A stretch of 64,000 nucleotides of DNA from Myxococcota bacterium (GCA_965223415.1 OZ245002.1:5376001-5440000), one strand, 5' to 3'; shown: positions 4,599 to 61,172, counted from the stretch's first letter. The notes: generated by a model from the sequence alone, not told the origin. A program made the numbers and translations.

Positions 4599-5414
4599 TC
4601 ACTCGCGGCACTCGCACTGGTTCTCGTCGTCTCGGCCTGTGAGGTACGAGCGGAAAGCTCGACCGTTGCGATCTCGCCTGAGAGGGGACGGATCGCCGGA
4701 CGCCACCGGCCAAGGCACCGTATCTGGCACGCCGGGAGGGATGGCTCGCTTCCCGAGGAAGCGCCTCCACGGCCGGCTTTCTCGGGCCGACTCAGTCCGC
4801 CGCGCCTTCTGCTGGTAGCGGTCGTGGAGCTCTTCGGTGGTGGCGTCACTCTCCCGGTCATCGACGGGGCCCCGTGGATCCTCTCGATTCGCGATGAGGT
4901 TGAGCATGACGACCGCGCCACGATACGACCCCTCGAACAACTCGCTCCAGCGCTCGGCATACCGGGCATCGGGAACCACTTCCTCGAGGGGCGCCGATGC
5001 GCCCGGATCGATTGACTCGTCGCCCCGGTAGCACCGCAGCCGCAGGTTCAAGAAGTAGAGGAGCTCGGGTGCGCCGGGCGTGACCTCCATGAGGTGGTAG
5101 CGGAGTAGGCTCTCCTCCGCGGCGATCCGCCCGAGGAATGCCTCGTAGTCGGCCGGGCTCTGGAAGTCCACGATCACGACCTCGTCCCAAGCGCCCAGGT
5201 CTTCGCCGGCCATCTGGATCGGCTCGAACCCGGCGAACGCCAGGTCGCCGCTCTCGAAGAGCGGGCTCTCCGGAGCGCGCTCCCAGGAGGCACCCTCCCC
5301 GTACTCCAGGAACACACACGCCGACTGAGCGGGCAGCAGGAGGCTCCGAATCCCGAGTCCGACGAGGACCGCGACGAGCAGCGCGCCAAGAACGCGCGCC
5401 CAGCGCTTGGCCAT
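4599..5414 (-). pseudogene. Membrane-anchored hypothetical protein (DUF1330-like), probably 3'-truncated near 4800
   Basis: Signal anchor and VMLNL..R motif; C-terminus becomes implausible and reads across the tRNA-Arg fragment at 4725. Confidence 0.45.
4725..4742 (-). repeat. tRNA-Arg 3'-end fragment (candidate outer att site)
   Basis: TGGCACGCCGGGAGGGAT identical to 43347-43364; reverse complement ends in GCCA. Confidence 0.65.
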
Positions 5415-5513
5415 GACGAGACACTCCTTGGGCCGGTCTCGAGCGGTCCGCTCGGTGGAGCTCCCCGAGCGCGCCTCGCATCGAGTGCGGAGGAACGACG
5501 TGGAGATCCGCCG

Positions 5514-5942
5514 CTACGTGTCGCTCGGCGCCCCCTCTTTCGCAGGCTGGATGAACTCGAGCGAGATGCCACACGCGTCCTTGCGGCTCACGAAGGCCAC
5601 CTGGTTGCCGTGGAATTCCTCGAGGGAGGAGAACGCGATGCCGCGCCTCGCGAGTTCCGCCTGCGCGTGGTCCATGTCGTCAACGGAGAAGCAGATCGAA
5701 TCGATCCCCTCTCCGTGCCGCTCGATGACTCGCATCAACGAGCTGTCCGGACCGCCCGGCACCATGACGTCGAAGGTCACGCCACCGACGTCGAAGAAGG
5801 CGCCATCGAAATCACCCCTCGTATTCGCGCCACGGTCGGGACCGGCCGTGGCGCCGAGCACGTCCACCAGCAGGTGCTCGATGCGATCCCTGGAGCGCAC
5901 CCGCAGGTTGATCTTCATGAGCTTGGACACGACATCGGGCAT
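5514..5942 (-). CDS. VOC family protein (methylmalonyl-CoA epimerase-like)
   Basis: IERHGEGIDSICFSVDD and GISLEFIQ motifs. Confidence 0.75.
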   Translation of the reverse strand: MPDVVSKLMKINLRVRSRDRIEHLLVDVLGATAGPDRGANTRGDFDGAFFDVGGVTFDVMVPGGPDSSLMRVIERHGEGIDSICFSVDDMDHAQAELARRGIAFSSLEEFHGNQVAFVSRKDACGISLEFIQPAKEGAPSDT

Positions 5943-6129
5943 GTTCCTTCTCCCCGGTGATTCTCGTTTCGCCGCCGGACGATAGCGCGACGGGAGTGCC
6001 AACCGGCTCGGCACGGTTCCTTCCGGGGCGTTCTCCTGCACCATGAGAGTTCAGTGGGCCGGTCCTGGAAGGCCTCACGCCGCTGGTGCAACTTCCGACC
6101 CAATCGATCGTTGACCCAATGGAGCCTCC

Positions 6130-6576
6130 ATGAACAAGCTACTGAAATGGATCGGCGGCATCGTCGGACTCTACGTCGTCTTCGTCGTGATCTTCGAATC
6201 CGTCTACCTCGGCCACTTGCAGCCGAGCTTCGAGGAACGTGGCATCCCGATGCTCGACATCGTCACGAAGGACGAGGCCGGGCAACCCACCAAACGCCGC
6301 CTGGCCCGGCTCGAATCGGCCTCCGGACCGATGTACGTGTCCGCGCACCATTGGACGCGCGGCTGGTACCACGAGCTGGTCGCCCACCCGGAGGTCCGCG
6401 TGGAGTTCGACGGCAAGTCTGCTGACTACGTCGCCGTCGTCATCACCGGGGACGAGTTCGATCGGATCGCCGCCGAATTCCCCCTCCCGCTCTTCATGCA
6501 GTTCCTGATGGGTTTTCCGCCGGGGCGTGAAATCGTGCGCCTCGACCCGGTGTCGAGCGGGGCCCAGCGCCCATGA
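6130..6576 (+). CDS. Membrane-anchored nitroreductase/deazaflavin-dependent oxidoreductase-like protein
   Basis: N-terminal TM; RGWYHELVAHPEVRVE and IVRLDP resemble the DUF385 fold. Confidence 0.55.
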   Translation: MNKLLKWIGGIVGLYVVFVVIFESVYLGHLQPSFEERGIPMLDIVTKDEAGQPTKRRLARLESASGPMYVSAHHWTRGWYHELVAHPEVRVEFDGKSADYVAVVITGDEFDRIAAEFPLPLFMQFLMGFPPGREIVRLDPVSSGAQRP

Positions 6577-6837
6577 GCACCGAAGCCCTGTCGACCTTCC
6601 CGCCGCAGAAACGCGTCGCGCTCATCGATCCCTTCATCACGCTCTTCGTGGTACCGGCGGGCTACGTGATCCTGGAGGACCTGCGTGGGGCGCGGGGCCG
6701 GGGAGCCGCCGAGGAGGCCGGGATCCCGGCCGAGGAGGCCGCCTAGGCCACGCTGTGCCGACCCGCGGGGAGCCCTCTCGACCGCAGTTGCCCCGCGGGG
6801 TCAAGATCGTGACTCAGCTCACCGAAGAAGCTGGGGA

Positions 6838-7386
6838 ATGCCCCCTTTCCCCCTCAGTCCGTTTCGCCAGACCGTCCGCAGGGCGACGCTCGCGTTCGCG
6901 CTGGCCCTGGTGGCCGCGTCTGCCGCCGGCGCCAGTCCGCTGCTGGCCGGGGCCGATCACAGTGGCGAGAACCACGCGAACGAGGTGCACGCCGGAGCGC
7001 ACCTCGACGGCATCATCCTGTCGAGCGCGAACCTCCGGAACACCGACTTCAGCGGCACGAGCTTCCTGGGCGCGTTCTTCCTCTCCGCCCAGCTCCGCGG
7101 AGCCACCTTCGCTGGCGCCGACCTGACGAACGCGAACCTGTCCGGCTCCCAGCTCCGCAACGCGAACTTCACCAACGCGACGCTCGTCGGCGCCGATCTC
7201 TCCGGGACGGCGAATTGGGACCGCGCGACCTGGACCGGTGCGACCTACGACCTCGCGACCCTGTTCCCCGCCGGCATGGACCCGGTCGCCGAAGGCATGA
7301 TCCTCGCCCCCGAGGCCTCGGTCGCTGCCCTGCTGGCGCTCGCGGGCCTCGCGCTCGCGACGCGGCGGCGCTGCCAGCGCGCCTAG
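6838..7386 (+). CDS. Secreted pentapeptide-repeat protein with PEP-CTERM-like tail
   Basis: Signal peptide; A(D/N)L/Fxx repeats; C-terminal APE + hydrophobic helix + RRR. Confidence 0.75.
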   Translation: MPPFPLSPFRQTVRRATLAFALALVAASAAGASPLLAGADHSGENHANEVHAGAHLDGIILSSANLRNTDFSGTSFLGAFFLSAQLRGATFAGADLTNANLSGSQLRNANFTNATLVGADLSGTANWDRATWTGATYDLATLFPAGMDPVAEGMILAPEASVAALLALAGLALATRRRCQRA

Positions 7387-7527: not shown

Positions 7528-7545
7528 ACCCCAGGTTCGAAGCCC
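7528..7545 (-). repeat. tRNA-Arg(TCG) anticodon-arm fragment
   Basis: ACCCCAGGTTCGAAGCCC, core shared with the Arg sites at 15942, 40915, 43347 and 46703. Confidence 0.6.
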
Positions 7546-8500
7546 GTGAAGAGGATGAGGAATGACACGGACTTGCGAGTCGTCGCACTGCAGGAGGCTG
7601 CCATAGCCTGCATTGAGGGGGCGTTTCAACTGCACCAGATCCAGCGCGGTACTACCCGGCGCCCTCCAAGGAGCGTCTCGCTTTCGAAATTACCAGCGAG
7701 GGCATCTTCAACTAGACTCGCCTACAGCGAAGTGATGCCTGCACGGATTCAGAGCGAGACGTCGCTCGAGTCAGCATCGGGCCCCGCGCCTCGGCCGTCC
7801 GCAGGCTTCAGATGCCGCTCACCGTGGCGCCGAGGCGCCTCACGTCTTCGAGGAGCCGTCTTGGATCGACCACACACCCCATGTAGCTCAGACCGGGCCG
7901 TTGGATCGTGCCGTCGAGAAGCTGTAACGCGCAGGCAACCAATGGAAACGCCGTGATCTCGTATCCGTCTTCGTGACTGACGAGCACTCCGAGACGCTCT
8001 GGAGAATCTTCGACGAGGGCCTCGGCCTCCAGTTTGATCCGGACGCTATAGGGTGGCTTCGTGAAGCGGCGATTCGCCTTCACGAAGAGGCGCGCACACC
8101 GGCGAATCGCGCTCTCGCTCCTCCCGAGTCCCAGGAGCTTGAAAAGGAAGACGAATAGATCGATGACGGGGCTGACGCCCGCAGAGTGGGCCGAGAGGTG
8201 TTTCACATCCAGCTGTTCAGGCAGCTCTCGCAGCTCGACCAGATCCATCGGGTAGCACTGCAATGCGCCGAATGGATCTCCGAACTCAACGCTCCGGGTT
8301 GCTATGAGCTTTGCCTTTTTCCATTCGCCGTCACTGAACTCCATTGCTGGGGTTGCAGCCAGCCGCAACAGATCGATCGACGATCCCAGTGCGAGTTCGG
8401 GACCCCTGATGAAGCCCGAGACGTTGGCTGCCTGCAGCTTGCCCTGTCCCCCCTGGCGGTTGACACGATCTGAGCTGGGAATCCCCTCCTGGTTGCGGCC

Positions 8501-9388
8501 TCAAGCGGCCTGGTTGAACTCGATACCGAGGTTCTCGGCTCGTTTCTCGGCAGGCGTCATCCAGCCGAGAGCTTGGTGAGGCCGGACGTGGTTGTAGACG
8601 TGCAGCCACTGCTTCACGGCCTCGCGAAGCTCGGCGACGGTCTGCCAGTCTTGCGTCCAGATCAGCTCCACCTTCAGCGTCTGGATGAAGCGCTCGGCGA
8701 CGGCGTTGCCCGTGGGTCGGCCCACGGGCGCGAACGTGTGGTCGAGGCGCCAGGCCTTGCAGAGGGCCTCGCAGTCCGAGCCCGTGTACTGCGGCCCGTG
8801 GTCGCTGCGAAGCTCCAGCCCCTCGGGCACCGACGCGCGCGACCCGAAGGCCTCTTCGAGGCTCCGTTCGACCGGCGCCAGGACGGCGGGCGACTCCTGG
8901 GACTTCGTCACCTCGACGTCGAACACCACCCGGTCGCCGCAGTCGATGACCGGGACCAAGGCTACGGTGCCCTCCTGGGCCGTCCAGGTCGTCGTCAGGT
9001 CCGTGGCCCAGCGCCGGTTCGATTCCGGCACCGCCACATGCCCTCCCTGGAGCGGCTGGGCCCGCTCCGAGATCGGCGGCAGGCAAAGCCCCAAGGCCTT
9101 CATCCGCTTCCAGACCCGCTTGCGCGACACGACCGTCCCCAGCCGCCGCAGGTACGCCCAGACCTTGCGAACGCCCCAGGCCGGAAACTCGGCCACCACG
9201 TCCTTGATCTTCTCGATCAGCGTCGCATCCGAGACCCACGGCCCCCGGCGCTCCGGACGCCGGAGGGCTTCCGGCTCCTGCGCCGAGGACGGCGCCTTGC
9301 GCGCCGTGTAGTACGCCTGGCGCGAGATCCCGAAGGCCTCGCACAGCTGCCCCACCCTGGCCTCACCCCGGGACGTGGTGAGGCTCAT
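8501..9388 (-). CDS. IS3-like transposase OrfB (DDE/rve)
   Basis: WATDLT, LRSDHGPQY, NAVAERF..TLK.E, YNHVRPH. Confidence 0.9.
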   Translation of the reverse strand: MSLTTSRGEARVGQLCEAFGISRQAYYTARKAPSSAQEPEALRRPERRGPWVSDATLIEKIKDVVAEFPAWGVRKVWAYLRRLGTVVSRKRVWKRMKALGLCLPPISERAQPLQGGHVAVPESNRRWATDLTTTWTAQEGTVALVPVIDCGDRVVFDVEVTKSQESPAVLAPVERSLEEAFGSRASVPEGLELRSDHGPQYTGSDCEALCKAWRLDHTFAPVGRPTGNAVAERFIQTLKVELIWTQDWQTVAELREAVKQWLHVYNHVRPHQALGWMTPAEKRAENLGIEFNQAA

Positions 9389-9795
9389 CGTCGAGACCTC
9401 CCGGGCCGTGAAGGGCGGTCCTTGAGCGCCCGATCCACCAGCTCGTGCTTGATCGCCAGGTGCGTGAAGGCCTTCTCCAGGCTCCCGAGCTCCTTCTCCA
9501 GCTGCAGCTCCCGGGCCGACTTGCCCGAGCCCTGGCGCAGCGCCTGGCCGATGCCCTCCATCGCCTGCTCCCGCCAGCCCTCCACCGTGCTCGCGCGAAC
9601 GCCGAAACGCCGGGCAATCTGGTCCACGCTGGCCTTGCCGCTCAAGAGCTCCAGCACCGCCTCTGTCCGCTCCTCGGTGCTACGACGACCCGGCCGGCCG
9701 CGCACGGGGTCGCCGAGGGCCTCCGCCTCGCTCCGCTCGGCTCCGCCCCTCGGCGACCCCGAACCCCTTCGACTCCTGCTCTGCTTCCTGCTCAT
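9385..9795 (-). CDS. IS3-like transposase OrfA (HTH)
   Basis: AVLELLSGKASVDQIARRFGV; ATGA overlap with OrfB. Confidence 0.8.
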   Translation of the reverse strand: MSRKQSRSRRGSGSPRGGAERSEAEALGDPVRGRPGRRSTEERTEAVLELLSGKASVDQIARRFGVRASTVEGWREQAMEGIGQALRQGSGKSARELQLEKELGSLEKAFTHLAIKHELVDRALKDRPSRPGRSRR

Positions 9796-10274
9796 CTTCC
9801 CCTCTCTGCGAAGGGGATTTCCTAACCCGAATGTGTCAACCCAGCAAAGGGGGACGCGGTAGTTGGCTGCCTGCAGCTCTCCAAGTTGATCTGCTGCCAG
9901 GCGTACCAGGGTGGCGGGCAATCCGGGAAGCGCTCCGGCCTCCGTGATGAAGCGGAGGCCAGAGCGCTCGATCGTCGGTCCGAGGTCGCGGAGTGCCGCG
10001 GCCTTCTGCAGCCCCAGGCTGATGTCGATCCAGTCGACGCCAGCCTCGATCGCGGTCAGGGCCACGCGGTGCGCGATTCCTTCGAGGGGGATGCAGACGA
10101 TGATGAGATCGCAGCCTTCCAGCCCGGTTGTAAGGGATGCCGCGTCGTTGGCGTCGACCTGCGCGGCGCCCACGCGCTCAGGGTCGAGCCCTGTCGCAGG
10201 ACGTGATATTCGAGGGCTAAGAGGACACGTAGATTTGCGCACCTCCTGTTGAGCCGCTGCGCGGCACGTTCCCC

Positions 10275-11561
10275 GTGAGGGAGGGGGGCGTGGGGCAGCG
10301 GCGACTGAGGCAGGAGGAAGTGATGACGATCGAAGTGCTGCACGAGCGGGGGTGCTCGAACCGGGAGATCGCCCGCCAGCTGGGGATCCGGGAGAGCGCG
10401 GTGCGCTACCGGCTGAAGCGGCTGGCGGAGGGGGCGCGAGACGGCCGGAGCGGGAAGCCCTTCCTGGCCGAGGCGGTCCACGAGGTGATCGCGGAGTGGC
10501 TGGAGGCGAGCTCGGGAGGCCGTGGCGTGAACCTGCAGGAGCTTCACGAGTTCCTGGTGGAGGAGCACGGGTACACGGGGAGCTCCAAGAGCGTGCAGCG
10601 GTACGTGCGGGCCCGGTTCCCGAGACCGAAGGTGCGGAGCCGGCGTCGGGTGGAGACACCGCCCGGGGCGCAGGGTCAGGTGGACTGGGGCGAGTTTCCG
10701 GGCGTGCGGATCGGGGGCCAGGAGGTGGACCTGCATGCCTTCCACCTGGTGCTCTCGCACTCGCGGCGAGAAGCGGTGGTGTGGTCGGAGCGGGCGGACA
10801 CGCTGGCGTGGCTGGACGTGCACAACCGGGCCTTCGAGCGGCTGGGCGGGGTGCCGGCGGTGCTGCGGGTCGACAACGTGAAGACAGCGGTGGCGAAGGG
10901 GGCGGGGCCATGGGGGACGGTGAACCCGGCTTACGCGAGCTATGCCGGGGCCCTTCGCTTCCACGTGGACGCCACCCGTCCCCGCCAGCCGCAGGAGAAG
11001 GGGAAGGTGGAGCGTCGGATCCTGGGGCACCGGCGGGGCTTCGATCCGCGTCGGCGGGAGCACGAGAGCCTGGAGTCGCTGCAAGCGTGGACGGACGGCC
11101 AGGTGGCGCGCTCGAGCCACCGGCGGCAGTGCCCGGCGACGGGCACGACGGTCTTCCAGGCGTGGGAGGCGGAGAAGCCCCATCTCGGGGCCCTGCCCGA
11201 GCGGCTTCCCGAGCCCTTCGACCTGGCCGTGATGCGACGTGTCGGGCGCGACGCCACGGTGCGCTTCGAGGGGCGTACCTACAGCGTCCCCTTCCGCTTC
11301 GTCGAGCAGAGCGTCGAGGTGCGCGGCTGCGCCCGGCAGGTGCAGGTCTGGGCCGAGGGCTCGGTGGTGGCCGCGCACCCGCGCCACACGCGAAGCCGCC
11401 TGCTGCTGGACCCGAGCCACTACGAGGGGCCGAGCACGGAGGGGGTGGAGGCGCCCGTACCGCTCGGGCGCATGGGTCGACGCCTCCAGGAGCTGTGGGC
11501 GATGGAGCCGGAGCAGCGGCCGATCGACCTCTATGCCGATCTGGCGGAGGTGGCGCGATGA
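10275..11561 (+). CDS. istA: IS21 transposase
   Basis: ETPPGAQGQVDWG, VDNVKTAV, KGKVER. Confidence 0.95.
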   Translation: MREGGVGQRRLRQEEVMTIEVLHERGCSNREIARQLGIRESAVRYRLKRLAEGARDGRSGKPFLAEAVHEVIAEWLEASSGGRGVNLQELHEFLVEEHGYTGSSKSVQRYVRARFPRPKVRSRRRVETPPGAQGQVDWGEFPGVRIGGQEVDLHAFHLVLSHSRREAVVWSERADTLAWLDVHNRAFERLGGVPAVLRVDNVKTAVAKGAGPWGTVNPAYASYAGALRFHVDATRPRQPQEKGKVERRILGHRRGFDPRRREHESLESLQAWTDGQVARSSHRRQCPATGTTVFQAWEAEKPHLGALPERLPEPFDLAVMRRVGRDATVRFEGRTYSVPFRFVEQSVEVRGCARQVQVWAEGSVVAAHPRHTRSRLLLDPSHYEGPSTEGVEAPVPLGRMGRRLQELWAMEPEQRPIDLYADLAEVAR

Positions 11562-12198
11562 CGGCGGGAAACCCGGTGCCCAAGAAGGGCGGCAAGGTGG
11601 ATCTCGACCCGACCCGCGAGCGGCTCGTGCGCCTCGGCCTCCATCACGCGGCCGAGCACATCGGCGAGGAGCTGGCCCGAGCGACCAAGGACGACCTCGT
11701 GCCCCACCGCTTCCTCGACCTGCTGCTCGAGGCCGAGCTGCAGCACCGCGAGGAGCGGAGGATGAAGACCTCGCTCCGTCTCTCGGGCCTTCCCACGGGG
11801 CAGACCCTCGGCAACTTCGACTTCGCCTTCCAGCCGAGTGTGGAGCGGAGCCGGATCGAGACGCTGGGCACCTGCGCGTGGATCCGGGCCAAGGAGAGTC
11901 TGCTGATCCAGGGTCCGCCGGGAGTGGGCAAGACCCACCTGGCGGTGGCCCTGGGGGTGCGGGCCGTGGAGAACGGCTTCTCCGTGGCCTTCCATCGCCT
12001 CGAGGACCTGCTGGCGGCCCTCAAGCGCGACGCCGAGATCAGCCCGCAACGGCTGCGGCGGCGCAAGCACATGAACGTGGCGCTCCTCGTCATCGACGAG
12101 GTCGGTGTCGATTCCCGCGGGCATGACCCAGGTATTCTCACGGGGTTGACCCATGGGTCCCGGGCCGGTGGATGAGGTAGCACGCTCCTTGTTTGGCG

Positions 12199-15941: not shown

Positions 15942-16070
15942 GGGATTCGAACCCTCGACCCCCAGGTTCGAAGCCTGGTCTGCAGGGGGTGCAATAGGGT
16001 GCAGGGAGGTGTCGTTTCGACGGCACCAGATCGGCGGACGGCACTGGACGGCGCCTCCCGGGAGAGTCTC
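15942..16070 (-). repeat. tRNA-Arg(TCG) fragment plus conserved flank with GGGTGCA tandem repeat
   Basis: GGGATTCGAACCCTCGACCCCCAGGTTCGAAGCCTGG; flank recurs at about 46768 and 61085. Confidence 0.85.
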
Positions 16071-16350: not shown

Positions 16351-16394
16351 GGCGCACGACCGAGGCGAGCCGCAGCTCGTGGAGGTCAATCTAG

Positions 16395-42706: not shown

Positions 42707-42708
42707 TG

Positions 42709-49798: not shown

Positions 49799-50053
49799 CT
49801 AGGCGATACCAGGGTACGGTCCGGCCACATCCTTTACAGGAGTCCAGGGACATCGTTTACACCCGGGGGATGCCCTGGATGGAAACGGATGTCATTTCTC
49901 ACGGGCATGACTCACCTTTTCTCACGGGCATGACCCAGGCCTGACCGCGGTTTTCTCACGAGCATGACCCACCCCAGATGGGGGGGGCTCAGGAGGAGGC
50001 CGGTCCCGTGGCCGACCCAGGCCATTCTGCGGCGCCAGAGGAGGCGCAGGCAG

Positions 50054-52457: not shown

Positions 52458-53929
52458 CGCCAAACAAGGAGCGTGCTACCTCATCCACCGGCCCGGGACC
52501 CATGGGTCAACCCCGTGAGAATACCTGGGTCATGCCCGCGGGAATCGACAAACGGATGCAAGGAAGCAGCGGCAGGCGTTCGTTCGCGACTACGAGAGCG
52601 GTCAGTGGTCGATGAGCGAGCTGTGTCGGCGGTATCGTGTCTCCCGGCCCACAGGCTACAAGTGGCTCGGGCGCTTCGAGTCGGAGGGGGAGGCCGGCCT
52701 GGAGGAGAGGTCCCGTGCGCCGGCTCGCTGCCCGCACAGGACGCCAGCGAGCGTGGAGCGCAAGATCCTGGCCCTTCGCGCCGAGTACGGCTGGGGTGCG
52801 AAGAAGATCTTGCAGGTGCTCGAGCGCCGGTACCCGAAGATGCAGAGGCCCGCGCGAAGCACGGTGAACGCGATCCTCGATCGCCACGGCAAGCTGCGCA
52901 AGAACCGACGTCGGAAGAAGTGGTCGCATCCCGGCGCTGCGTCGCTGTCGACCGACCACCCGAACCAGGTGTGGCCCGCGGACTTCAAGGGCCAATTCAA
53001 GATGCGCAACGGTCGCTACTGCTACCCGCTGACCGTGACCGACCACTGCAGCCGCAAGCTCCTGATGTGCCGCGGGCTGCACTCGATTCGCACCGAGGGC
53101 GTGAAGCCGCTGTTTCGGGAGCTCTTTCGCGAGGTCGGACTTCCCGAGGCGATTCGCACCGACAACGGTGCCCCCTTCGCATCGACCGGGATCCACGGCC
53201 TGTGCGAACTCAACGTGTGGTGGATGAAGCTCGGCATCGTGCACCAGCGCATCCGTCCTTCGAGCCCCCAACAGAACGGGCAGCACGAGAGGATGCACAA
53301 GGACCTCAAACGCGAGGCGACCCGCCCGCCTGGCGCGAACCTCAACGTCCAGCAGCGGATGCTCGAGGCCTTTCGTCGACGCTACAACGAGGAGCGGCCG
53401 CACGAAGCACTCGGTGGAGCGTTTCCCGAGGAGCGCTACGAGCCCTCGCCGCGGCCGTACCCCAGTCGCCTCTCGCCGCCGGAGTACCCTGCGCAGATGG
53501 AAGTGCGCCGCGTGAGCCGGGCCGGGACGTTTCGGCTGAAGGCGAAGCAGCCCTTCCTGAGCAACGCACTGGCCGATGAGTACATCGGACTTGAAGAGAT
53601 CGGCGACGGCATCTGGAGCATCGTCTACTACGAGACGATCCTGGGCCGCATCGACGAGCGCAGCAGGAAGATCACCGGAGTCTGAGAGGTGTAAACGATC
53701 TACCTGGACTTGTGTAAAGGATCAGCCGGACCGGTCACAGGGCACCGGGCGATCCCGAGCGTTGGCGTCTGGCCTACAACCATGCGGAGCGATTGGGGGT
53801 GTCGGGTGCCGGTCGGTGCCGTCACTGCCGAGCGGCCGAGTCTCGCAACCCCTCGAGAACACTGCGTGTCCGAACTGAGCCCCAGCCGCGGCACCTGAGG
53901 GTCGCAGCGGAACCGATGCAACCCCGCGT

Positions 53930-54674
53930 GTGCTTAGCGAGACATCGCTGACACCTGATTCCGGAGACATGGTTTACACAATCGGCAATTTGGGGAGCCC
54001 CCGGATGCCGTGGAGAACGTGTAGACCGATGGATGAACGCCTCCGCTTCGTAGCTCGCCTGCTCGAGGGCGAGAAGATGGCGCCCCTGTGCCGCGAGTTC
54101 GGGATCTCCCGGGTCACCGGGTACAAGATCTACGAGCGCTACAAGACCTGCGGCCTCGAGGGCCTGAACGACCGCTCCCGCCGGCCCTATCGCCACGCCA
54201 ACAAGCTGCCGTACCAGGTCGAACGCGCGATCCTGGGGATCAAGAAGGAGTACCCCTCCTGGGGGGCTCCGAAGATCCGCGACAAGCTGATCCGCGACTT
54301 CCCGATGATCAAACCGCCCGCGGTGAGCACGGTGCATGCCGTGCTGGATCGCAACGGACTGGTCATGCGGCGGAAGCGGAGACGCCACAAGGCCAAGGGC
54401 ACGGAGCTCAAGGCGGCCCACGCTCCGAACGGCCTGTGGTGCGCAGACTTCAAGGGCGAGTTCATGCTCGGCAGCAAGCAGTACTGCTACCCGCTGACGA
54501 TCACCGACTACCGAACGCGCTACCTACTCGCCTGCGAGGGTCTCTCGTCGACGCGGTCGGACTTCGCCTTCTCCGTCTTCGAGAGGACCTTCAAGGACTT
54601 CGGGCTGCCGACGGCGATCCGCACCGACAACGGGGTTCCCTTCGCGTCGCCCAACGCACTCTTCGGTCTCTCGA
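53930..54674 (+). mobile_element. IS481-like element, 5' part (transposase from 54005, truncated)
   Basis: MPWRTC.PMDERLRF...WCADFKG...IRTDNG, then breaks off. Confidence 0.82.
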
Positions 54675-54681
54675 AGTCAAC

Positions 54682-55014
54682 ATGCTCGAAGGCATCTTCG
54701 GAAACGCCAGCGCCGAGAAAGTGCTGCTCTACCTCGAGCAGTACGAGGAGGGCTACGCGACCGCGATCGCCCGGACCTTCGACGGCCTGTCGCTCAACAT
54801 GGCGCAGCGGCAGCTCGAGCGATTCGAGCGCGCCGGCGCGCTGGTGAGCTCGCTCCAGGGCCGCACCCGCCTCTACACCTGGAATCCCCGCTATCCGTTT
54901 CGGCGCGAGCTGCGGGCCCTCCTCCGCAAGGCGCTCGACCAGCTGCCCGCGTCAGAGCGCAAGCGCTACTTCACCGAACGAAGACGGCCGCGCCGAGCGG
55001 GCAAGCCGATTTGA
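54682..55014 (+). CDS. Winged-helix (ArsR-like) protein
   Basis: MLEGIFGN...KVLLYL....EGYA..IA; overlaps a truncated downstream ORF at 55011. Confidence 0.75.
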   Translation: MLEGIFGNASAEKVLLYLEQYEEGYATAIARTFDGLSLNMAQRQLERFERAGALVSSLQGRTRLYTWNPRYPFRRELRALLRKALDQLPASERKRYFTERRRPRRAGKPI

Positions 55015-55216
55015 GCAAGAAGCCTCGGATCAGCCAGCCCACCTCTCTGGAGGATCTGGCCGCCCTCGTCTGCTCCACGCTTGTCGAGGGACGTCATCTC
55101 TTGCGCGCTAAGAGGACGGCTAGTTTTGCGCACCCCCCTGGGTTGATGTTCGGTTCTTCCTTCTTCTCTTCCGCTCTCCGAAGGAGAGCACGGCCGTCAG
55201 GCCGCCCTCTGGGGCC

Positions 55217-56017
55217 TCAACGCTGGGCGCTTTGCCCCGCGGCCTGCTCGAGCTCGCGGAGCCGGTAGCTCCGCCCCGAGATGTTGAGCACCTGGCTGTG
55301 GTGGAGGAGGCGATCGAGGATGGCGGTGGCCAGCACCTCGTCGCCCGCCAGCACCTCGGGCCAGTCGGCGATGCCCTTGTTCGTGGTGATCAGGATCGAG
55401 CCCCTCCCATAGCGGTAGGAGACGAGCCGGAAGAAGAGGCTCGCCTCCTGGCGCGTCATGGGCTCGAAGCCGACCTCGTCGATGACGAGGAGCGCCACGT
55501 TCATGTGCTTGCGCCGCCGCAGCCGTTGCGGGCTGATCTCGGCGTCGCGCTTGAGGGCCGCCAGCAGGTCCTCGAGGCGATGGAAGGCCACGGAGAAGCC
55601 GTTCTCCACGGCCCGCACCCCCAGGGCCACCGCCAGGTGGGTCTTGCCCACTCCCGGCGGACCCTGGATCAGCAGACTCTCCTTGGCCCGGATCCACGCG
55701 CAGGTGCCCAGCGTCTCGATCCGGCTCCGCTCCACACTCGGCTGGAAGGCGAAGTCGAAGTTGCCGAGGGTCTGCCCCGTGGGAAGGCCCGAGAGACGGA
55801 GCGAGGTCTTCATCCTCCGCTCCTCGCGGTGCTGCAGCTCGGCCTCGAGCAGCAGGTCGAGGAAGCGGTGGGGCACGAGGTCGTCCTTGGTCGCTCGGGC
55901 CAGCTCCTCGCCGATGTGCTCGGCCGCGTGATGGAGGCCGAGGCGCACGAGCCGCTCGCGGGTCGGGTCGAGATCCACCTTGCCGCCCTTCTTGGGCACC
56001 GGGTTTCCCGCCGTCAT
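55217..56017 (-). CDS. istB: IS21 helper ATPase
   Basis: Same protein as 45345-46145. Confidence 0.95.
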   Translation of the reverse strand: MTAGNPVPKKGGKVDLDPTRERLVRLGLHHAAEHIGEELARATKDDLVPHRFLDLLLEAELQHREERRMKTSLRLSGLPTGQTLGNFDFAFQPSVERSRIETLGTCAWIRAKESLLIQGPPGVGKTHLAVALGVRAVENGFSVAFHRLEDLLAALKRDAEISPQRLRRRKHMNVALLVIDEVGFEPMTRQEASLFFRLVSYRYGRGSILITTNKGIADWPEVLAGDEVLATAILDRLLHHSQVLNISGRSYRLRELEQAAGQSAQR

Positions 56018-57300
56018 CGCGCCACCTCCGCCAGATCGGCATAGAGGTCGATCGGCCGCTGCTCCGGCTCCATCGCCCACAGCTCCTGGAGGCGTCGACC
56101 CATGCGCCCGAGCGGTACGGGCGCCTCCACCCCCTCCGTGCTCGGCCCCTCGTAGTGGCTCGGGTCCAGCAGCAGGCGGCTTCGCGTGTGGCGCGGGTGC
56201 GCGGCCACCACCGAGCCCTCGGCCCAGACCTGCACCTGCCGGGCGCAGCCGCGCACCTCGACGCTCTGCTCGACGAAGCGGAAGGGGACGCTGTAGGTAC
56301 GCCCCTCGAAGCGCACCGTGGCGTCGCGCCCGACACGTCGCATCACGGCCAGGTCGAAGGGCTCGGGAAGCCGCTCGGGCAGGGCCCCGAGATGGGGCTT
56401 CTCCGCCTCCCACGCCTGGAAGACCGTCGTGCCCGTCGCCGGGCACTGCCGCCGGTGGCTCGAGCGCGCCACCTGGCCGTCCGTCCACGCTTGCAGCGAC
56501 TCCAGGCTCTCGTGCTCCCGCCGACGCGGATCGAAGCCCCGCCGGTGCCCCAGGATCCGACGCTCCACCTTCCCCTTCTCCTGCGGCTGGCGGGGACGGG
56601 TGGCGTCCACGTGGAAGCGAAGGGCCCCGGCATAGCTCGCGTAAGCCGGGTTCACCGTCCCCCATGGCCCCGCCCCCTTCGCCACCGCTGTCTTCACGTT
56701 GTCGACCCGCAGCACCGCCGGCACCCCGCCCAGCCGCTCGAAGGCCCGGTTGTGCACGTCCAGCCACGCCAGCGTGTCCGCCCGCTCCGACCACACCACC
56801 GCTTCTCGCCGCGAGTGCGAGAGCACCAGGTGGAAGGCATGCAGGTCCACCTCCTGGCCCCCGATCCGCACGCCCGGAAACTCGCCCCAGTCCACCTGAC
56901 CCTGCGCCCCGGGCGGTGTCTCCACCCGACGCCGGCTCCGCACCTTCGGTCTCGGGAACCGGGCCCGCACGTACCGCTGCACGCTCTTGGAGCTCCCCGT
57001 GTACCCGTGCTCCTCCACCAGGAACTCGTGAAGCTCCTGCAGGTTCACGCCACGGCCTCCCGAGCTCGCCTCCAGCCACTCCGCGATCACCTCGTGGACC
57101 GCCTCGGCCAGGAAGGGCTTCCCGCTCCGGCCGTCTCGCGCCCCCTCCGCCAGCCGCTTCAGCCGGTAGCGCACCGCGCTCTCCCGGATCCCCAGCTGGC
57201 GGGCGATCTCCCGGTTCGAGCACCCCCGCTCGTGCAGCACTTCGATCGTCATCACTTCCTCCTGCCTCAGTCGCCGCTGCCCCACGCCCCCCTCCCTCAC
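56014..57300 (-). CDS. istA: IS21 transposase
   Basis: Same protein as 44062-45348. Confidence 0.95.
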   Translation of the reverse strand: MREGGVGQRRLRQEEVMTIEVLHERGCSNREIARQLGIRESAVRYRLKRLAEGARDGRSGKPFLAEAVHEVIAEWLEASSGGRGVNLQELHEFLVEEHGYTGSSKSVQRYVRARFPRPKVRSRRRVETPPGAQGQVDWGEFPGVRIGGQEVDLHAFHLVLSHSRREAVVWSERADTLAWLDVHNRAFERLGGVPAVLRVDNVKTAVAKGAGPWGTVNPAYASYAGALRFHVDATRPRQPQEKGKVERRILGHRRGFDPRRREHESLESLQAWTDGQVARSSHRRQCPATGTTVFQAWEAEKPHLGALPERLPEPFDLAVMRRVGRDATVRFEGRTYSVPFRFVEQSVEVRGCARQVQVWAEGSVVAAHPRHTRSRLLLDPSHYEGPSTEGVEAPVPLGRMGRRLQELWAMEPEQRPIDLYADLAEVAR

Positions 57301-57383
57301 GGGGAACGTGCCGCGCAGCGGCTCAACAGGAGGTGCGCAAATCTACGTGTCCTCTTAGCCCTCGAATATCACGTCCTGCGACA

Positions 57384-57685
57384 ACCTCTACCCGACGGTG
57401 CAGGTCCACCACCTGCACCATGCGCGCGAGCGGCGCCTGCAGGACTCGAACTTCGCGGGCGTGAGCACCCTCTTCGACGTCGTGTTCGGCACCTTCCGCC
57501 ACCCCGACGGGCACCCGTTCGAGGACTACGGCATCGGGGGCGACCCGGTGCCCGCGGGCTTCATCGCGCAGCTCCTCTACCCCGTGCGCCGATGGTTCGA
57601 AGGCGCGATGGGCGCGGGCGGCGGCGCCTCCGTTGGAGGGAGCCTCGCGGAGACGGCCGGGCGTGGGCACCCTCCGTCGGGGTGA
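57384..57685 (+). pseudogene. Sterol desaturase 3' remnant
   Basis: HHLHH...NFA.....D.VFGTF; 5' part replaced by IS21. Confidence 0.75.
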
Positions 57686-57758
57686 TGCGATTCGCGTGGG
57701 CGGCGCAGAGCTATCCTCTGAGTTCGATCTGGGCTTTGGGCACGGGGAGCTGCGGGAG

Positions 57759-58559
57759 ATGACCGTGGGCGACGAAGCCACCTACCAGCTACTGCGCGGC
57801 TTGGGGCTCGCTGTCGCCTTTGCGCTAGGAATCGCGCTGGAGCAGTGGCGCCCGCACGAACGCCTGCGACCGGCGTGGCGCACCAACGTCGGCCTCTGGG
57901 CCATCGACGCCGCCGTCATGGCCGCTGTCTGCGGGGCGTGCGGGTGGCTCGTGGCCGCCTGGGCGGCGAGCCTCGGACTCGGGCTCTTCGCCTGGCTTGA
58001 CACCCCCACCTGGGCGGCGGCCGCGTTCGGCGTGCTGGCGCTCGATGGCGTCTCGTACGCCTGGCACCGCGCGAACCACCGGATCCCGCTCCTCTGGCGC
58101 TTCCACCAGGTACATCACGCGGACACGAGCTTCCACGTGACGACGGCGTTGCGCTTCCATCCCGGAGAGCTCCTGCTCGCCCTCCCCGTCCGCCTCGCCG
58201 CCGTGGTGGCGTTGGGCGTGCCACCGGCGGGCGTCCTCCTCTTCGAGATCGTCTTCGGGATCGCGAACCTCCTGGAGCACGGGAACTTCGACCTTCCCCG
58301 CCGCTTCGAGCCCTTGGCGCAGCGCGTGCTCATCACGCCGGCGCTGCACCGGGCGCATCACGTCTCCGACTGGCAGGAGCTGGACACGAACTTCGGCACG
58401 ATCCTCTCGGCGTGGGATCGCCTCGCCGGAACGCTGCGCACGAGTGACGGGGCTCGCCGCGTGGTGACCGGGCTGCCCGACTGGAAAGCAGAACGAGCGC
58501 CGTCGCTCTCGGAGTCGCTCTTCCTGCCCCTTTCCCAAAGCCGTTCGCGAGCGCGCTGA
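57759..58559 (+). CDS. Sterol desaturase / fatty acid hydroxylase family
   Basis: HRANH, HQVHH, RFHPGE, HRAHH boxes. Confidence 0.92.
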   Translation: MTVGDEATYQLLRGLGLAVAFALGIALEQWRPHERLRPAWRTNVGLWAIDAAVMAAVCGACGWLVAAWAASLGLGLFAWLDTPTWAAAAFGVLALDGVSYAWHRANHRIPLLWRFHQVHHADTSFHVTTALRFHPGELLLALPVRLAAVVALGVPPAGVLLFEIVFGIANLLEHGNFDLPRRFEPLAQRVLITPALHRAHHVSDWQELDTNFGTILSAWDRLAGTLRTSDGARRVVTGLPDWKAERAPSLSESLFLPLSQSRSRAR

Positions 58560-58720
58560 AGACCCCACCCGGCGAACTCCAACAACGGCTCGATGGGCGC
58601 GGTTGTATCCCGCTTGTATCCCGACCCGCGCACACGTCGAGAACACGAGCGAGCACGCCCACTTGCAGACGAAGCGTGCGGGTTTCGAGAAACCCGAAAA
58701 GCTGAACGAAATCAGCTAGA

Positions 58721-58817
58721 TGGCGGGGCGGACGGGACTCGAACCTACAACCTCCGGCCCTAAGTGCCCGGAAACACAATGGTTCAGACGACTGAAGCTT
58801 GTATCCCGTTGTATCCC
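58721..58817 (-). repeat. tRNA-Asp 3' fragment att-like site 6 (type B variant)
   Basis: Same core, TGTATCCC x2; second pair at 58603-58622; left flank resembles 33312-33374. Confidence 0.9.
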
Positions 58818-58882
58818 GCCATCCGCAGGCAAGGGCTCCGACATCCGTGGTGTGGTTGTAGCTTTAAAGCTACGCTAGCTCG

Positions 58883-59221
58883 GTGCCGACGGAGGTCGAG
58901 GTCAGAATCTACGCCCTGCCGGACGGCAGCGAGCCCTACACGCGGTGGGAGGCGGCACTCAGGGACAGACAGGCGCGGGCACGCATCCGGGCGCGGATCG
59001 GACGGCTTCGGCTCGGCAACTTCGGCGACGCCAAGCGCGTGGGTGAGGTGTTCGAGCTTCGGGTTCGCGCCGGGCCCGGCTACCGCATCTACTACGGAAG
59101 GGACGGCGACGCCGTGGTGGTCCTGCTCTGCGGCGGAGACAAGGGATCACAGGCGAGAGACATCGAGCGCGCCGAAGGGTATTGGCGCGACTACCGGAGT
59201 CGAAACGATGGCAAGAGCTAG
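58883..59221 (+). CDS. RelE/HigB-like addiction-module toxin
   Basis: GNFGD.K.VG.V.ELR...GPGYRIYY, LLCGGDK.SQ.RDI. Confidence 0.92.
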   Translation: MPTEVEVRIYALPDGSEPYTRWEAALRDRQARARIRARIGRLRLGNFGDAKRVGEVFELRVRAGPGYRIYYGRDGDAVVVLLCGGDKGSQARDIERAEGYWRDYRSRNDGKS

Positions 59222-59510
59222 AGACTACCGAGAGCACCTGGACGAGGTGCTGAAGGACGACGCGGAGGCGGTGGCCTACCTGAACGCCGCTCTTGCGGAG
59301 GACGACCCGGAAGTGTTCCTCCTCGCGCTCCGCGACGTGGCCCGCACTCGAGAGGGTGGACTCGCAGGCCTGGCCGAGGCCGCGCAGCTCAACCGCGAGC
59401 ACCTCTACCGGATGCTCTCCGAGAACGGCAACCCGGAGCTCCGCAGCCTGGAGGCACTCCTCGACGCGCTGGGCTTCCGCCTGAGCGTCGAGCTGAAGGC
59501 AACGGGCTGA
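59208..59510 (+). CDS. Addiction-module antidote protein (HTH)
   Basis: Near-identical to 46350-46652. Confidence 0.9.
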   Translation: MARARDYREHLDEVLKDDAEAVAYLNAALAEDDPEVFLLALRDVARTREGGLAGLAEAAQLNREHLYRMLSENGNPELRSLEALLDALGFRLSVELKATG

Positions 59511-59566
59511 AGCAGCCGGGAACGCCGCAACCCTTCAAGCGAAGGCCGCCGCTGTCCCCCGACCCT

Positions 59567-59800
59567 TGTATCTACTCCACTCACCCGGATCTGGTTCAAT
59601 AGGGTCAGAACGGGTTTCGGGGGAGGGTCGCCGTCCCGACCCAGAGGCATGGTCCTCGTACCTGAGAGAGGCGCCCTCGCCCGATCTCGCAAGCTCGAAC
59701 GGTATCCCGAGGCAGCGGTCTGCCGCTCGTCCTCGCATGCACAAGGAAGAGCACCGAGGTCGGCACCGAGGCTCCCGACGCTCCCGTTCGAGGAGGAAGA
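59567..59800 (+). ncRNA. Predicted IS110 bridge RNA (ends approximate)
   Basis: Segments matching target (59635-42, 59660-66) and donor junction (59699-706, 59741-45) within stem-bounded loops. Confidence 0.75.
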
Positions 59801-59805
59801 AGGGG

Positions 59806-60981
59806 ATGCGCTTCGTTGGGATCGACATCGCCTCGGAAACGCACGTCGTCGCGATGGTGGGAGAAGACGGGGGCGTGCTGCTGAAGCCGGTCTCGTTCCG
59901 GGAGGAGGCGGCTGGCTACGCACTGCTGTGGGAGAAGCTGGGAGGCCCCGAGGACACGCTCGTAACGCTCGAGGCAACGGGGCACTACTGGAAGAACCTG
60001 TTCGCGGCGCTTGCGGCGAGGGGTTTTGCCGTGGCGTTGATCAACCCGCTGCGCAGTCGCCGGTTCGCACAAGAAGACTTGGAGCGGACGAAGACCGACG
60101 CAATCGATGCGCTCGGCCTGGCTCGCTTCGGAGCACAGAAGCGTCCGAGGGTGACTCGCCTTCCGGACGCGGCGACAGAAGAGCTTCGTGAGCTCGTCCG
60201 GCTCCGCGATCGTCTGGTTCAGGACTTCGGGGACTGCACCCGGCGGCTCCACCGCATGGTCGATCTGGGCTTCCCAGAGCTCAAACGGTACGTGAAGCAC
60301 CTCGATAGCCAGCTGTCGACGGGGCTGCTGCGGGAGTACCCCACGGCAAGAGCCTTCCAGGAAGCCTCTGTGGGGCGCGTGGCAAAGCTTCGCTACGACG
60401 GTCGTCATCGTGTAGGCGATGCGCTCGCGAAGCAGCTCGTCGAGGCTGCGCAGAACTCGGTGGGCGCCCATCATGGCCCGGCCTACCAGGTGCAGGTGCG
60501 TTACCTGTGCGAAGACATGGACGTCTTGCGCAAGAGACTCGGCGACATCGACCGCGACATCGCGGATCAGCTATCCGCGCACGAGGTCGGAAGCTTGCTG
60601 ACGACGATCGATGGGATCGGGCCGACGACGGCAGCACGGCTCATCGCGGAGCTCGGTGACCCGGCCGACTTCGCCACGGCCGCAGCCCTCGCCGCCTACG
60701 TGGGCGTCGTTCCAGGCCTAAAGCAGTCGGGCAAGCGCCAAGGCAAACGCGGGAACCTCTCGCCAATCGGTCACGCGCGGCTACGTCGCGCACTGTGGAT
60801 GCCGACGTTGGTCGCCGTTCGGAAGAACCCCTGGGTGCGGGCCCACTACGAGCGGCTGCGCGACAACGGCAAGCCCGCAAAGGTCGCGCTGATCGCCTCG
60901 ACGAGGAAGCTGCTCATCGCGGTTCACGTCGTGGCGAGGACCCGCAAGCCCTTCGTTCCACAGCTAGAGACCAACCCATGA
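59806..60981 (+). CDS. IS110 recombinase (DEDD)
   Basis: VGIDIA, LEATG, KTDAIDA, GIG, QSG. Confidence 0.95.
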   Translation: MRFVGIDIASETHVVAMVGEDGGVLLKPVSFREEAAGYALLWEKLGGPEDTLVTLEATGHYWKNLFAALAARGFAVALINPLRSRRFAQEDLERTKTDAIDALGLARFGAQKRPRVTRLPDAATEELRELVRLRDRLVQDFGDCTRRLHRMVDLGFPELKRYVKHLDSQLSTGLLREYPTARAFQEASVGRVAKLRYDGRHRVGDALAKQLVEAAQNSVGAHHGPAYQVQVRYLCEDMDVLRKRLGDIDRDIADQLSAHEVGSLLTTIDGIGPTTAARLIAELGDPADFATAAALAAYVGVVPGLKQSGKRQGKRGNLSPIGHARLRRALWMPTLVAVRKNPWVRAHYERLRDNGKPAKVALIASTRKLLIAVHVVARTRKPFVPQLETNP

Positions 60982-61026
60982 ACCGAGAAAACCGGGCCCA
61001 GCCCCTTGCTGAAGATCACGGTATCT

Positions 61027-61172
61027 CAGGTTCGAAGCCTGGTCCAAGAAGAAGAAGTGACGCGGGGTTACGTCTCGTTGCAGTGCAGGGGGGTGCAATA
61101 GGGTGCAGGAAGGTGTCGTTTCGACGGCACCGAGTCGCGGGACGGCACTATACGGCGCCTCTCTAGAGAGTC
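61027..61172 (-). repeat. Remainder of the tRNA-Arg site plus GGGTGCA flank
   Basis: CAGGTTCGAAGCCTGGTCCA...; near copy of 46711-46860. Confidence 0.85.

Follow-up and report, generated by a model that had tools for sequence, protein, structure and literature searches.

How do fourteen fragments of two tRNA genes come to lie in a single orientation along some 56 kb of a bacterial chromosome, at the joints between small gene modules and with no integrase gene among them? The question is raised by a 64,000-nt stretch of DNA recorded as Myxococcota bacterium (GCA_965223415.1 OZ245002.1:5376001-5440000), hereafter called the window, whose host genome is probably that of a member of the Myxococcota. 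The window has a G+C content of about 68%. Ordinary metabolic enzyme genes occupy both of its flanks (1-4518 and 61180-64000), and between them lies an island of about 56 kb formed by small gene modules set end to end. The array of tRNA pieces spans 4725-61187 and all 14 of its sites are on the minus strand. The island holds toxin-antitoxin (TA) pairs, TetR regulators with enzymes, a cyclase-TPR protein, an AAA_14/DUF4143 ATPase, a catabolic-looking block of 14 kb and insertion sequences (IS). We lean, with modest confidence, towards an accretion array: non-autonomous modules resembling cis-mobilizable elements (CIMEs), bounded by two types of tRNA-derived attachment (att) sites of tyrosine integrases, moved in trans, stabilised by TA pairs and heavily invaded by IS.

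Genes in the window were picked by third-position G+C and their products compared with Pfam (43 open reading frames, ORFs, then 130), NCBIfam (26 ORFs) and PADLOC (25 ORFs). Repeats and IS copies within the window were compared by self-BLAST, and the number of core matches expected by chance was taken from sequence shuffles. An earlier note on this DNA had counted about 14 co-oriented tRNA fragments, a count that was confirmed as six pieces of tRNA-Asp and eight of tRNA-Arg, far above the shuffles. The 20-nt Asp core GGTTCGAGTCCCGTCCGCCC had six exact matches, all minus, at 18724, 33378, 36780, 39920, 43561 and 58726 (0.02 in shuffles), and the Arg anticodon-arm core GGCTTCGAACCTGGGGGTCG had four, also minus, at 15956, 40919, 43374 and 46704 (0.01 in shuffles). 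The block common to the Asp sites extends from the T-loop to CCA or its vicinity; five of the six fragments reach CCA, and the one at 33378 has an altered 3' end. The block common to the Arg sites is the anticodon arm, i.e., a 5-bp stem, a 7-nt loop and a 5-bp stem. Both identities were read from fetched loci of other genomes (numbered with an L, see below): in L105 this Asp 3' end follows an intact anticodon arm with GTC, and real tRNA-Arg(TCG) genes carry the same Arg anticodon arm.

The cores are flanked by arms of several types. Upstream of the Asp cores there are two: U1, with two copies of GTGCTCAAG, at 18719 and 33378, and U2, with two copies of TTGTATCCCG, at 36775, 39915, 43556 and 58721. 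Downstream there are four: Da (18719), Db (33378 and 58721), Dc (36775) and Dd (39915 and 43556). The Asp core at 36775 has in addition two copies of CGTATCCC on the side opposite U2. In the Arg sites the anticodon stem-loop is joined upstream by one of three arm types: ArgA, with two repeat families, an arm of GTATTCCCGC repeats (GTATT-type) and a Dd-type arm. Arm alignments and a repeat search thus agree with the earlier claim of conserved flanks carrying tandem direct repeats. The sites, all on the minus strand, are the following.

4725-4742, minus: left-most Arg piece of the array, the last 18 nt of the tRNA (T-stem 3' half, acceptor, CCA); exact copy of 43347-43364
7529-7679, minus: diverged Arg core (7529-7545) with a diverged ArgA-type upstream arm, 75% identical to 46708-46843
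15942-16083, minus: Arg fragment from anticodon stem to T-loop (15942-15978) with an ArgA arm (15981-16083) carrying paired repeats
18719-18817, minus: putative attAsp; core to CCA 18719-18743, two U1 repeats (GTGCTCAAG) 18798-18817
33312-33471, minus: putative attAsp; Db arm 33312-33377, core with altered 3' end 33378-33397, U1 33452-33471
36713-36871, minus: putative attAsp, complete and attP-like; GTATCCC pairs 36713-36731 and 36853-36871 around core 36775-36799
37543-37558, minus: Arg T-arm remnant; the homologous L041 cassette keeps the full Arg core and ArgA arm here
39842-40011, minus: putative attAsp; partial Dd 39842-39914, core 39915-39939, U2 39994-40011
40914-41013, minus: putative attArg; core 40914-40942, GTATTCCCGC-type repeat arm 40981-41013, an arm also found in L024 and L079
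43347-43656, minus: composite junction; U2 43635-43652, Asp core to CCA 43556-43580, Dd spacer 43421-43555, Arg hybrid pseudo-tRNA 43347-43420
46703-46871, minus: putative attArg; core 46703-46726, ArgA arm with two copies each of GACGGCAC and GTGCAGGG
58660-58817, minus: putative attAsp; Db 58660-58720, core to CCA 58721-58745, U2 58800-58817
59556-61187, minus: putative attArg split by an IS110 element; 3' part of core 59556-59565, 5' part 61027-61042, ArgA arm to 61187

These sites share cores of about 20-25 bp, with inverted half-sites around an overlap of 6-8 bp, and have arm-type direct repeats within about 150 bp, which is the anatomy expected of lambda-type att sites; the site at 36775, where GTATCCC repeat pairs flank the core on both sides, resembles a complete attP. 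Judged from the sequence, attAsp would run from the T-loop of tRNA-Asp(GUC) through CCA, with crossover in the 7-nt T-loop, and attArg would be the anticodon stem-loop of tRNA-Arg(UCG), with crossover in the 7-nt anticodon loop. The direct repeats, at about 30-150 nt from the cores, lie where sites for the N-terminal domain of an integrase would be expected. When eight ArgA arms were aligned, all three TGCACC words were found to switch together to TGCAGG or TGCAGC in two of them (the window arm at 7528 and L080), as expected for binding sites that track the specificity of a protein. According to the part of the Islander paper available (Table 1), the anticodon loop and the T-loop are both known crossover subsites in tRNA genes.

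Two minor features of the Arg pieces were noted. TTCGAA-type words occur along the Dd-Arg junction (43365-43433) at spacings of about 21 and 41 nt, a segment that spans the Arg anticodon loop and T-loop. Some relatives have a G+C-rich insertion of about 45-55 nt in the Arg T-loop with the acceptor end kept (L041 611-700 and 1516-1610, L106 28-120), and window positions 4743-4790, just upstream of the 18-nt Arg end, loosely resemble it.

No enzyme was found to go with these sites. None of the 43 + 130 ORFs compared with Pfam carried a Phage_integrase or Resolvase catalytic domain, and no tyrosine or serine recombinase was recognised among the 26 compared with NCBIfam; recombinase-like matches were likewise missing from the NCBIfam set, from the 25 ORFs given to PADLOC and from an Atlas search with ORF 4599-5414. 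A tblastn search of the window with the integrases of L019 (frameshifted) and L028 (393 aa) and with the Int protein of phage Mx8 returned nothing at E <= 1. Pfam, NCBIfam and tblastn therefore uphold the earlier statement that the 64 kb hold no integrase. Neither was an intI gene found at the head of the array within the 64-kb window (same Pfam and NCBIfam sets), nor any tycheposon-type integrase or replication gene (primase, helicase, polymerase) among the window ORFs. Integron attC sites, some 57-141 bp long, are imperfectly palindromic and fold when single-stranded; an inverted-repeat search of four junctions found no such long palindrome, only tRNA-arm-sized or weak pairs, and no pair at all in the ArgA arm. 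In the same four junctions no terminal inverted repeats were found at the module ends, which are directly repeated tRNA blocks.

Three candidates were considered and put aside. An HTH_7 match at 15916-16557 was dismissed (E = 0.0011, below the cutoff and without a catalytic domain), and a tblastn match of Mx8 Int at 15983-16201 (E = 1.5) was treated as noise. An IS481-like gene next to an Arg 3' end was rejected as the missing recombinase, since it is of the DDE type and transposition of that kind produces no duplicates of 20-45-nt tRNA blocks.

The earlier note had also seen no intact tRNA. ARAGORN and Rfam do call one tRNA-Arg, at 43351-43420 (30 bits, cutoff 29), a call to which the note had not pointed, but we rejected it as an intact gene: its 5' half is unlike that of a real gene and equals the conserved element arm of L006, L041, L058 and L069. 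It is therefore a hybrid, as at an attR junction, and the window has no genuine tRNA.

The modules lying between the sites were those announced by the earlier note (TA pairs, TetR with GST, ATPase, cyclase-TPR), as Pfam and NCBIfam showed. The note had described them as small; the modules are real, and what had gone unmentioned is that about 22 kb of the island consist of IS and that the array is rearranged (see below). From left to right they are as follows.

4599-7383, mixed: left cargo module with a 271-aa ORF (4599-5414, minus; no NCBIfam or PADLOC match, weak Atlas leads only, best score 0.79), a glyoxalase-fold protein (5514-6044, minus), an F420H2 quinone-reductase-like protein (6130-6576, plus) and a pentapeptide-repeat protein (6670-7383, plus)
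16635-18509, plus: adenylate/guanylate-cyclase and TPR protein, cargo in an Asp-to-Arg interval (Pfam; weak PADLOC match to PycC, E = 4.7e-4)
18774-19561, plus: TA pair of an antitoxin-like ORF and a VapC-family PIN toxin (19133-19561; Pfam PIN; TIGR00028, 7.7e-27), 79% identical to L046 and 89% to L041
19562-33311, mixed: large cargo module with IS481, an rve_3 remnant and then a catabolic-looking set (Pfam, self-BLAST), namely SDR, flavin monooxygenase, TetR, thiolase-like, DUF362, acyl-CoA dehydrogenase and epimerase; ORFs 25062-25358 and 25362-26450 had no Pfam match
33517-34092, minus: BrnT toxin domain and HTH/MqsA-like antitoxin domain in one 191-aa frame (Pfam, NCBIfam), either a fusion or a mis-called pair
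36913-37532, plus: VapB (36913-37131) and VapC (37128-37532) (Pfam; 83% identical to L041, purifying codon pattern)
37616-39812, mixed: cargo with TetR (N-terminal domain in ORF 37616-38755, minus; Pfam) and three ORFs with no family match in Pfam, NCBIfam or PADLOC
40044-40896, plus: putative TA pair of an Xre-type HTH protein (40044-40388) and a DUF6036 nucleotidyltransferase-fold protein (40321-40896) (Pfam; cassette 78-80% identical to L058 and L069)
41102-42265, plus: AAA_14/DUF4143 ATPase, Arg-to-Arg cargo (Pfam; PADLOC defence candidate PDC-S01, 1.5e-55; 80% identical to L075)
43718-46652, plus: HigB-like RelE/ParE toxin (43718-43993, truncated) and HigA-like antidote (46350-46652), split by IS21 copy B (Pfam, TIGR02683)
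46979-58559, mixed: TetR and GST, then an IS block, a 95-aa hydroxylase fragment (57398-57685) and a fatty-acid hydroxylase (57633-58559)
58883-59510, plus: intact HigB-like toxin (58883-59221) and HigA-like antidote (about 59208-59510) (Pfam; TIGR02683, 3.3e-33)

A pattern relates the TA genes to the sites. At all six Asp sites a TA pair lies beside the U arm, and the BrnT-HTH frame is the only Asp-adjacent TA oriented like the tRNA pieces. Every Arg-to-Asp interval of the window (4/4) holds a TA pair of about 1 kb, and all six such intervals in relatives hold TA-type genes. Four TA pairs are closed on the opposite side by an Arg piece, and the resulting units measure about 0.8-1.1 kb once IS are subtracted (36775-37558, 39915-40942, 43556-46726 less its IS21, and 58721-61042 less its IS110). 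The Asp-to-Arg intervals hold either the conserved non-coding Dd spacer of about 145-210 nt, so that the Asp-Dd-Arg composite is only about 200-270 nt long, or cargo that ends in an Arg arm. The two HigBA cassettes of the window are 91-97% identical by self-BLAST, and their homology ends at the Asp CCA, beyond which one has Dd and the other Db. The PDC-S01-type ATPase forms a single-gene module between two Arg sites both here and in L075 (11376-12527), with different arms. We also considered the tRNA pieces as decoys for tRNA-directed toxins and set the idea aside, the pieces being antisense to the TA genes in five of the six window pairs and in every Arg-to-Asp interval.

Do such units occur elsewhere? 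A genome collection was scanned with the Arg 20-mer as query, giving 109 stretches (stored as 108 loci), none of them from the source genome, with 107 distinct sites, of which 66 were bona fide tRNA-Arg(TCG) genes (three re-assigned by eye). Eight matches were set aside, seven of them coincidental ones in dxs-type (DXP synthase) coding sequence of unrelated phyla (L005, L021, L031, L037, L053, L085 and L088) and one in a glycosyltransferase-gene neighbourhood (L030). The remaining 33 were Arg fragments, 16 with the full tRNA 3' end and 17 joined to other DNA. Arrays like that of the window appeared in contigs of metagenome-assembled genomes (MAGs) labelled mostly Myxococcota or delta proteobacterium, and the best matches were 78-91% identical over 0.4-1.2 kb. 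L046 has the order Asp-Dd-Arg, Arg, Asp-Dd-Arg, U1-Asp, and L041 the order PIN TA, U1-Asp-Dd-Arg, Arg, ArgA-Arg, VapBC, Asp-Dd; similar arrays were found in L058, L069 and L079, a single Asp-Dd-Arg composite in L006 and L048, and three Arg sites with a fourth arm type, together with the ATPase of the window, in L075. Ten aligned Asp-Dd-Arg composites had a mean column identity of 74%, and the structure was assembled independently in about 10 MAGs; several MAGs have sites on at least three contigs each. Note that near-identical elements also occur on contigs labelled Spirochaetales or Thermoleophilia (L006, L024, L044, L045, L052, L055, L079, L105 and others), while the closest matches are labelled Myxococcota; the discordant labels may come from faulty binning or labelling, and not from transfer between phyla.

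The related loci were no richer in integrases. Pfam found none in 62 ORFs of L041, L046, L058, L069, L072 and L076 (four of the six being loci with Asp/Arg arrays), and among 127 ORFs downstream of Arg matches in other loci it found a single Phage_integrase, that of L019, beside an intact tRNA. In 317 ORFs from related loci this was the sole Phage_integrase match, and no intI-like gene was seen. Homologues lie beside intact tRNA-Arg(TCG) in L028, L055, L077, L094, L095 and L107. Phage and plasmid records searched with the composite junction and the Asp piece gave generic tRNA matches only. The genome of phage Mx8 contains a tRNA-Asp block from T-arm to CCA inside its int gene, and trnD1, a tRNA-Asp gene of M. 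xanthus, contains its attB1 (PMC13454183, in the portion available); the phage shares with the window the tRNA-Asp identity block from T-loop to CCA and differs in the acceptor sequence. Integrases beside tRNA-Arg(TCG) and Mx8 at tRNA-Asp together imply that enzymes using these two targets exist.

When modules were compared among genomes, their neighbours were found to differ, in one cassette precisely at the Arg core. In the window, L058 and L069 the HTH/nucleotidyltransferase cassettes can be aligned starting exactly at the Arg core and continuing across the TA genes, U2 and the Asp core into Dd, and upstream of the Arg core each of the three has a different arm, mutually unrelated. L079 combines the upstream arm and the U2/Asp end of the window with a PIN/RHH pair as its TA, and the VapBC and PIN cassettes have different neighbours in different genomes. 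The composite junction of about 200-270 nt (10 instances) is too short to accommodate an integrase or what is left of one. Reassortment exactly at the cores indicates that integrase-less units have spread as such, and it fits the movement of non-autonomous cassettes without an integrase of their own that had been claimed before.

The sites are moreover better conserved than the third codon positions of the genes they bound. Between the HTH/nucleotidyltransferase cassette of the window and those of L058 and L069, identity was 51-65% at third codon positions and 84-92% at first and second positions, 95-100% in the Arg core, 89.5% in the U2 repeats, 92% in the Asp core, 78-80% in the Dd spacer and 30-57% in the other spacers. 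The PIN cassette compared with L046 gave 51-61% at third positions, 95% in U1, 85% from U1 to the core and 100% in the Asp core. Cores and most arms are thus kept well above the identity of third codon positions.

In the accretion array that we favour, integrases encoded elsewhere would excise modules and insert them between sites of the same type, in the manner of CIMEs, the TA pairs would counteract the loss of each module, and IS invasion and rearrangement would have come later. At least seven arm types with differing repeat words suggest several lambda-type integrases that have arm-binding domains, and not one platform enzyme. From these patterns we infer the enzyme class, its action in trans and any present-day activity.

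Several observations weigh against this account. The same arm types would need several different integrases, and no helper integrase is seen within the 64-kb window. The arrays in the window, L046, L041, L058 and L069 are not anchored on an intact tRNA, a fact that simple integration into tRNA genes leaves unaccounted for; in one MAG it is L065, and none of the Arg-site junction contigs L046, L048 and L069, that carries the real tRNA-Arg. No orthologous empty site or flank was found among the fetched loci. The conservation of the U arms could in part be due to promoter function (in four of six cases the TA start codon follows them at 33-66 nt, and a fifth U arm overlaps with the ORF called as antitoxin), and gene conversion with real tRNA genes could have kept the cores alike. 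In the comparison of the VapBC cassette with L041 the signal is weaker, with 64-75% at third positions, 72% in U2 and 88% in the Asp core. Finally, the relatives are MAG contigs, some of them short and some oddly labelled as to taxon.

We propose only tentatively that uncultured Myxococcota have a hitherto undescribed two-site cassette system shuffled purely in trans, in which integrase-less TA cassettes of about 1 kb, along with cargo modules, are kept mobile in the long term at Asp T-loop and Arg anticodon-loop att sites, away from intact tRNA genes and at several loci per genome. If so, it would correspond in function to an integron, with att sites of the lambda type, and serve as a reservoir for addiction and defence genes.

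It seems to us rather unlikely that the sites are dead scars, left by successive integrase-bearing islands that entered tRNA-Asp and tRNA-Arg and then lost their integrases, with TA pairs surviving by addiction and nothing moving now. Tandem accretion followed by decay is a documented route (PMC5704250 and the preprint 10.1101/2020.12.28.424599, in the parts available), the region is riddled with IS and rearranged, several Arg pieces are cut down to 16-18 nt, and IS21 and IS110 have disrupted one HigB gene and one Arg core, respectively; the locus would then be an ordinary IS-ridden decay zone. Yet no integrase remnant appeared in the 173 window ORFs or by tblastn; the integrase-less junction is equally compact in its 10 instances in several genomes; cores, arms and the Dd spacer are far better conserved than third codon positions; and cassettes and arms are reassorted between genomes exactly at the cores.

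The earlier note had called the locus an integron-like array delimited by alternating tRNA att sites. The two-type array lacking both an integrase and a true tRNA was confirmed; intI, attI and attC-like palindromes were not found, and the array is integron-like in layout only and not an integron. It resembles sedentary chromosomal integrons in its small co-oriented cassettes, its interspersed TA cassettes and the lack of a recombinase in most cassettes, and differs from them in having no intI, attI or Pc in view, two alternating types of tRNA-derived site with lambda-type arm repeats, and several loci per genome; its TA cassettes probably carry their own promoters. A platform of that sort, in which one specialised recombinase outside the window would recognise both cores and shuffle cassettes at a fixed locus, is in our opinion improbable. 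It would account for the co-oriented sites and for cassettes of about 1 kb with TA genes among them, as in the available part of a description of sedentary chromosomal integrons (PMC13108822), for the lack of an integrase within 64 kb, and for the TTCGA common to the Arg anticodon loop and the Asp T-loop, placed between G/C-rich stems and recurring at about 21/41 nt in the Dd-Arg junction. It agrees poorly with at least seven arm types of unrelated repeat words, with sites on at least three contigs per genome in several MAGs, and with the absence of any hybrid Asp/Arg core, of attC-like palindromes at the four junctions and of intI-like genes in the 317 ORFs of related loci. An origin without site-specific recombination, by assembly error or by homologous or IS-driven shuffling of dispersed tRNA-like repeats, might be suspected from the many identical IS copies, the circularly permuted IS481-like gene with its 80-bp overlap, and relatives that are MAGs with short contigs ending in these very repeats, but it is highly improbable, as the same composite was assembled independently in about 10 MAGs, the window spans identical IS copies of 2.3-2.7 kb and so is not a collapsed short-read assembly, and the breakpoints fall at 20-25-nt tRNA-derived blocks with arm repeats, the signature of att sites.

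The accretion array can be set beside several known arrangements. The pdif modules of Acinetobacter plasmids are small, often carry TA genes and are moved by a recombinase encoded elsewhere, at 28-bp XerC/XerD sites of alternating, inverted orientation; the sites described here are instead directly repeated, tRNA-derived and provided with long arms. CIMEs, as presented in the available part of PMC5704250, are att-flanked elements whose integration and transfer genes were lost or never present and which rely on the integrase of another element. The modules of the window are likewise bounded by att-like sites and lack integration and transfer genes, and they share att-flanked structure and tandem accretion with CIMEs and the accretion-mobilisation of streptococcal tandems of integrative and conjugative or mobilizable elements (ICEs and IMEs). 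They differ in the number of sites (up to 14), in two interleaved tRNA identities, in units as small as about 1 kb that consist of one TA pair, in the recurrence of the same integrase-less units in several species, and in the lack of a resident ICE or IME or an intact target gene in view. Tycheposons, as the preprint 10.1101/2020.12.28.424599 describes them in the portion available, have their own integrase and replication genes, and Prochlorococcus islands contain partial tRNAs and degenerate remnants among plug-in cargo. Repeated integration at tRNA genes and scattered partial tRNAs are common to those islands and the window, whereas the Prochlorococcus islands lie beside an intact tRNA and the window shows no hallmark gene, two interleaved tRNA identities and TA pairs as recurrent cargo.

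From the available part of the Islander paper, only four tandems of three or more were present among 3919 islands, each with its own integrase, and the filters of that program demand an integrase and an intact tRNA. Of the triad on which it relies (intact tRNA gene, displaced fragment, integrase inside), the window has only the displaced, co-oriented fragments. A literature search, with most subscription journals outside its reach, found no description of such an arrangement, and the array differs from the described cases in its two interleaved tRNAs, minimal TA-only units, cross-species persistence, lack of an anchoring tRNA and number of sites. If the modules are mobile in trans, att sites of tyrosine integrases are able to sustain a traffic in very small non-autonomous cassettes resembling that of integrons, and TA pairs can persist as minimal integrative elements in themselves. 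This would help to explain how TA genes and candidates for defence, the PDC-S01-type ATPase among them, spread and accumulate in large environmental genomes with few recognisable mobile elements. Such arrays would also escape island finders that depend on both an integrase and an intact tRNA.

The IS of the island, which belong to the IS21, IS481, IS3, IS5 and IS110 families (Pfam, NCBIfam, self-BLAST), are listed here.

8501-15162, mixed: IS block with an IS3-family transposase (8501-9388, minus) and IS21 copy A (10192-15162) containing a nested 2661-bp IS21-family element (12106-14766)
20156-21343: IS481, followed by an IS481-family rve_3 remnant (ORF 21451-22230)
34140-36687, minus: further IS21-family element with IstB (34230-35255), IstA (34978-36603) and 81-nt inverted ends
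42589-43332, plus: C-half of an IS481-like transposase gene, convergent with an Arg 3' end, with 18-nt repeats at 43290-43307 and 43315-43332; its N-half is at 53930-54676
43949-46281: IS21 copy B, interrupting the HigBA-like pair
48653-49771: IS5, followed by a 2661-bp IS21-family element (49890-52550), IS481 (52550-53737) and IS21 copy C (55081-57412)
59566-61026: IS110-family element of 1461 bp inside an Arg core, with its transposase gene at 59566-60981, plus

The two 2661-bp copies (12106-14766 and 49890-52550) are 100% identical, inverted relative to each other, and encode a 600-aa IstA-like protein; one of them is nested within the istB gene of another IS21 copy. The transposase of the IS110-family element matches the NCBIfam model 'RNA-guided transposase' (2.6e-75), and the insertion point lies precisely within the Arg core. 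In the left non-coding end of the element (about 59618-59645) there are 7-8-nt matches to the sequence around that point, which would fit guide-directed targeting of the repeated att core. The IS481-like gene is circularly permuted, with its C-half 11 kb to the left of its N-half and an identical 80-bp overlap (42709-42788 = 54595-54674). Genes of this type lie about 40 nt from tRNA-Arg 3' ends and convergent with them in three genomes, i.e., the window, L003 (9721-11075, where the tRNA is tRNA-Arg(TCT)) and L006, and the gene looks like that of an IS favouring tRNA-Arg 3' ends. IS91-type rolling-circle elements were seen beside tRNA-Arg in L036 and L052 and not in the window. Short segments beside IS481 and IS5 (21335-21528, 48523-48630 and 49786-49891) are duplicated in differing orientations, suggesting that IS have brought about rearrangement between the regions at 20 kb and 49 kb.

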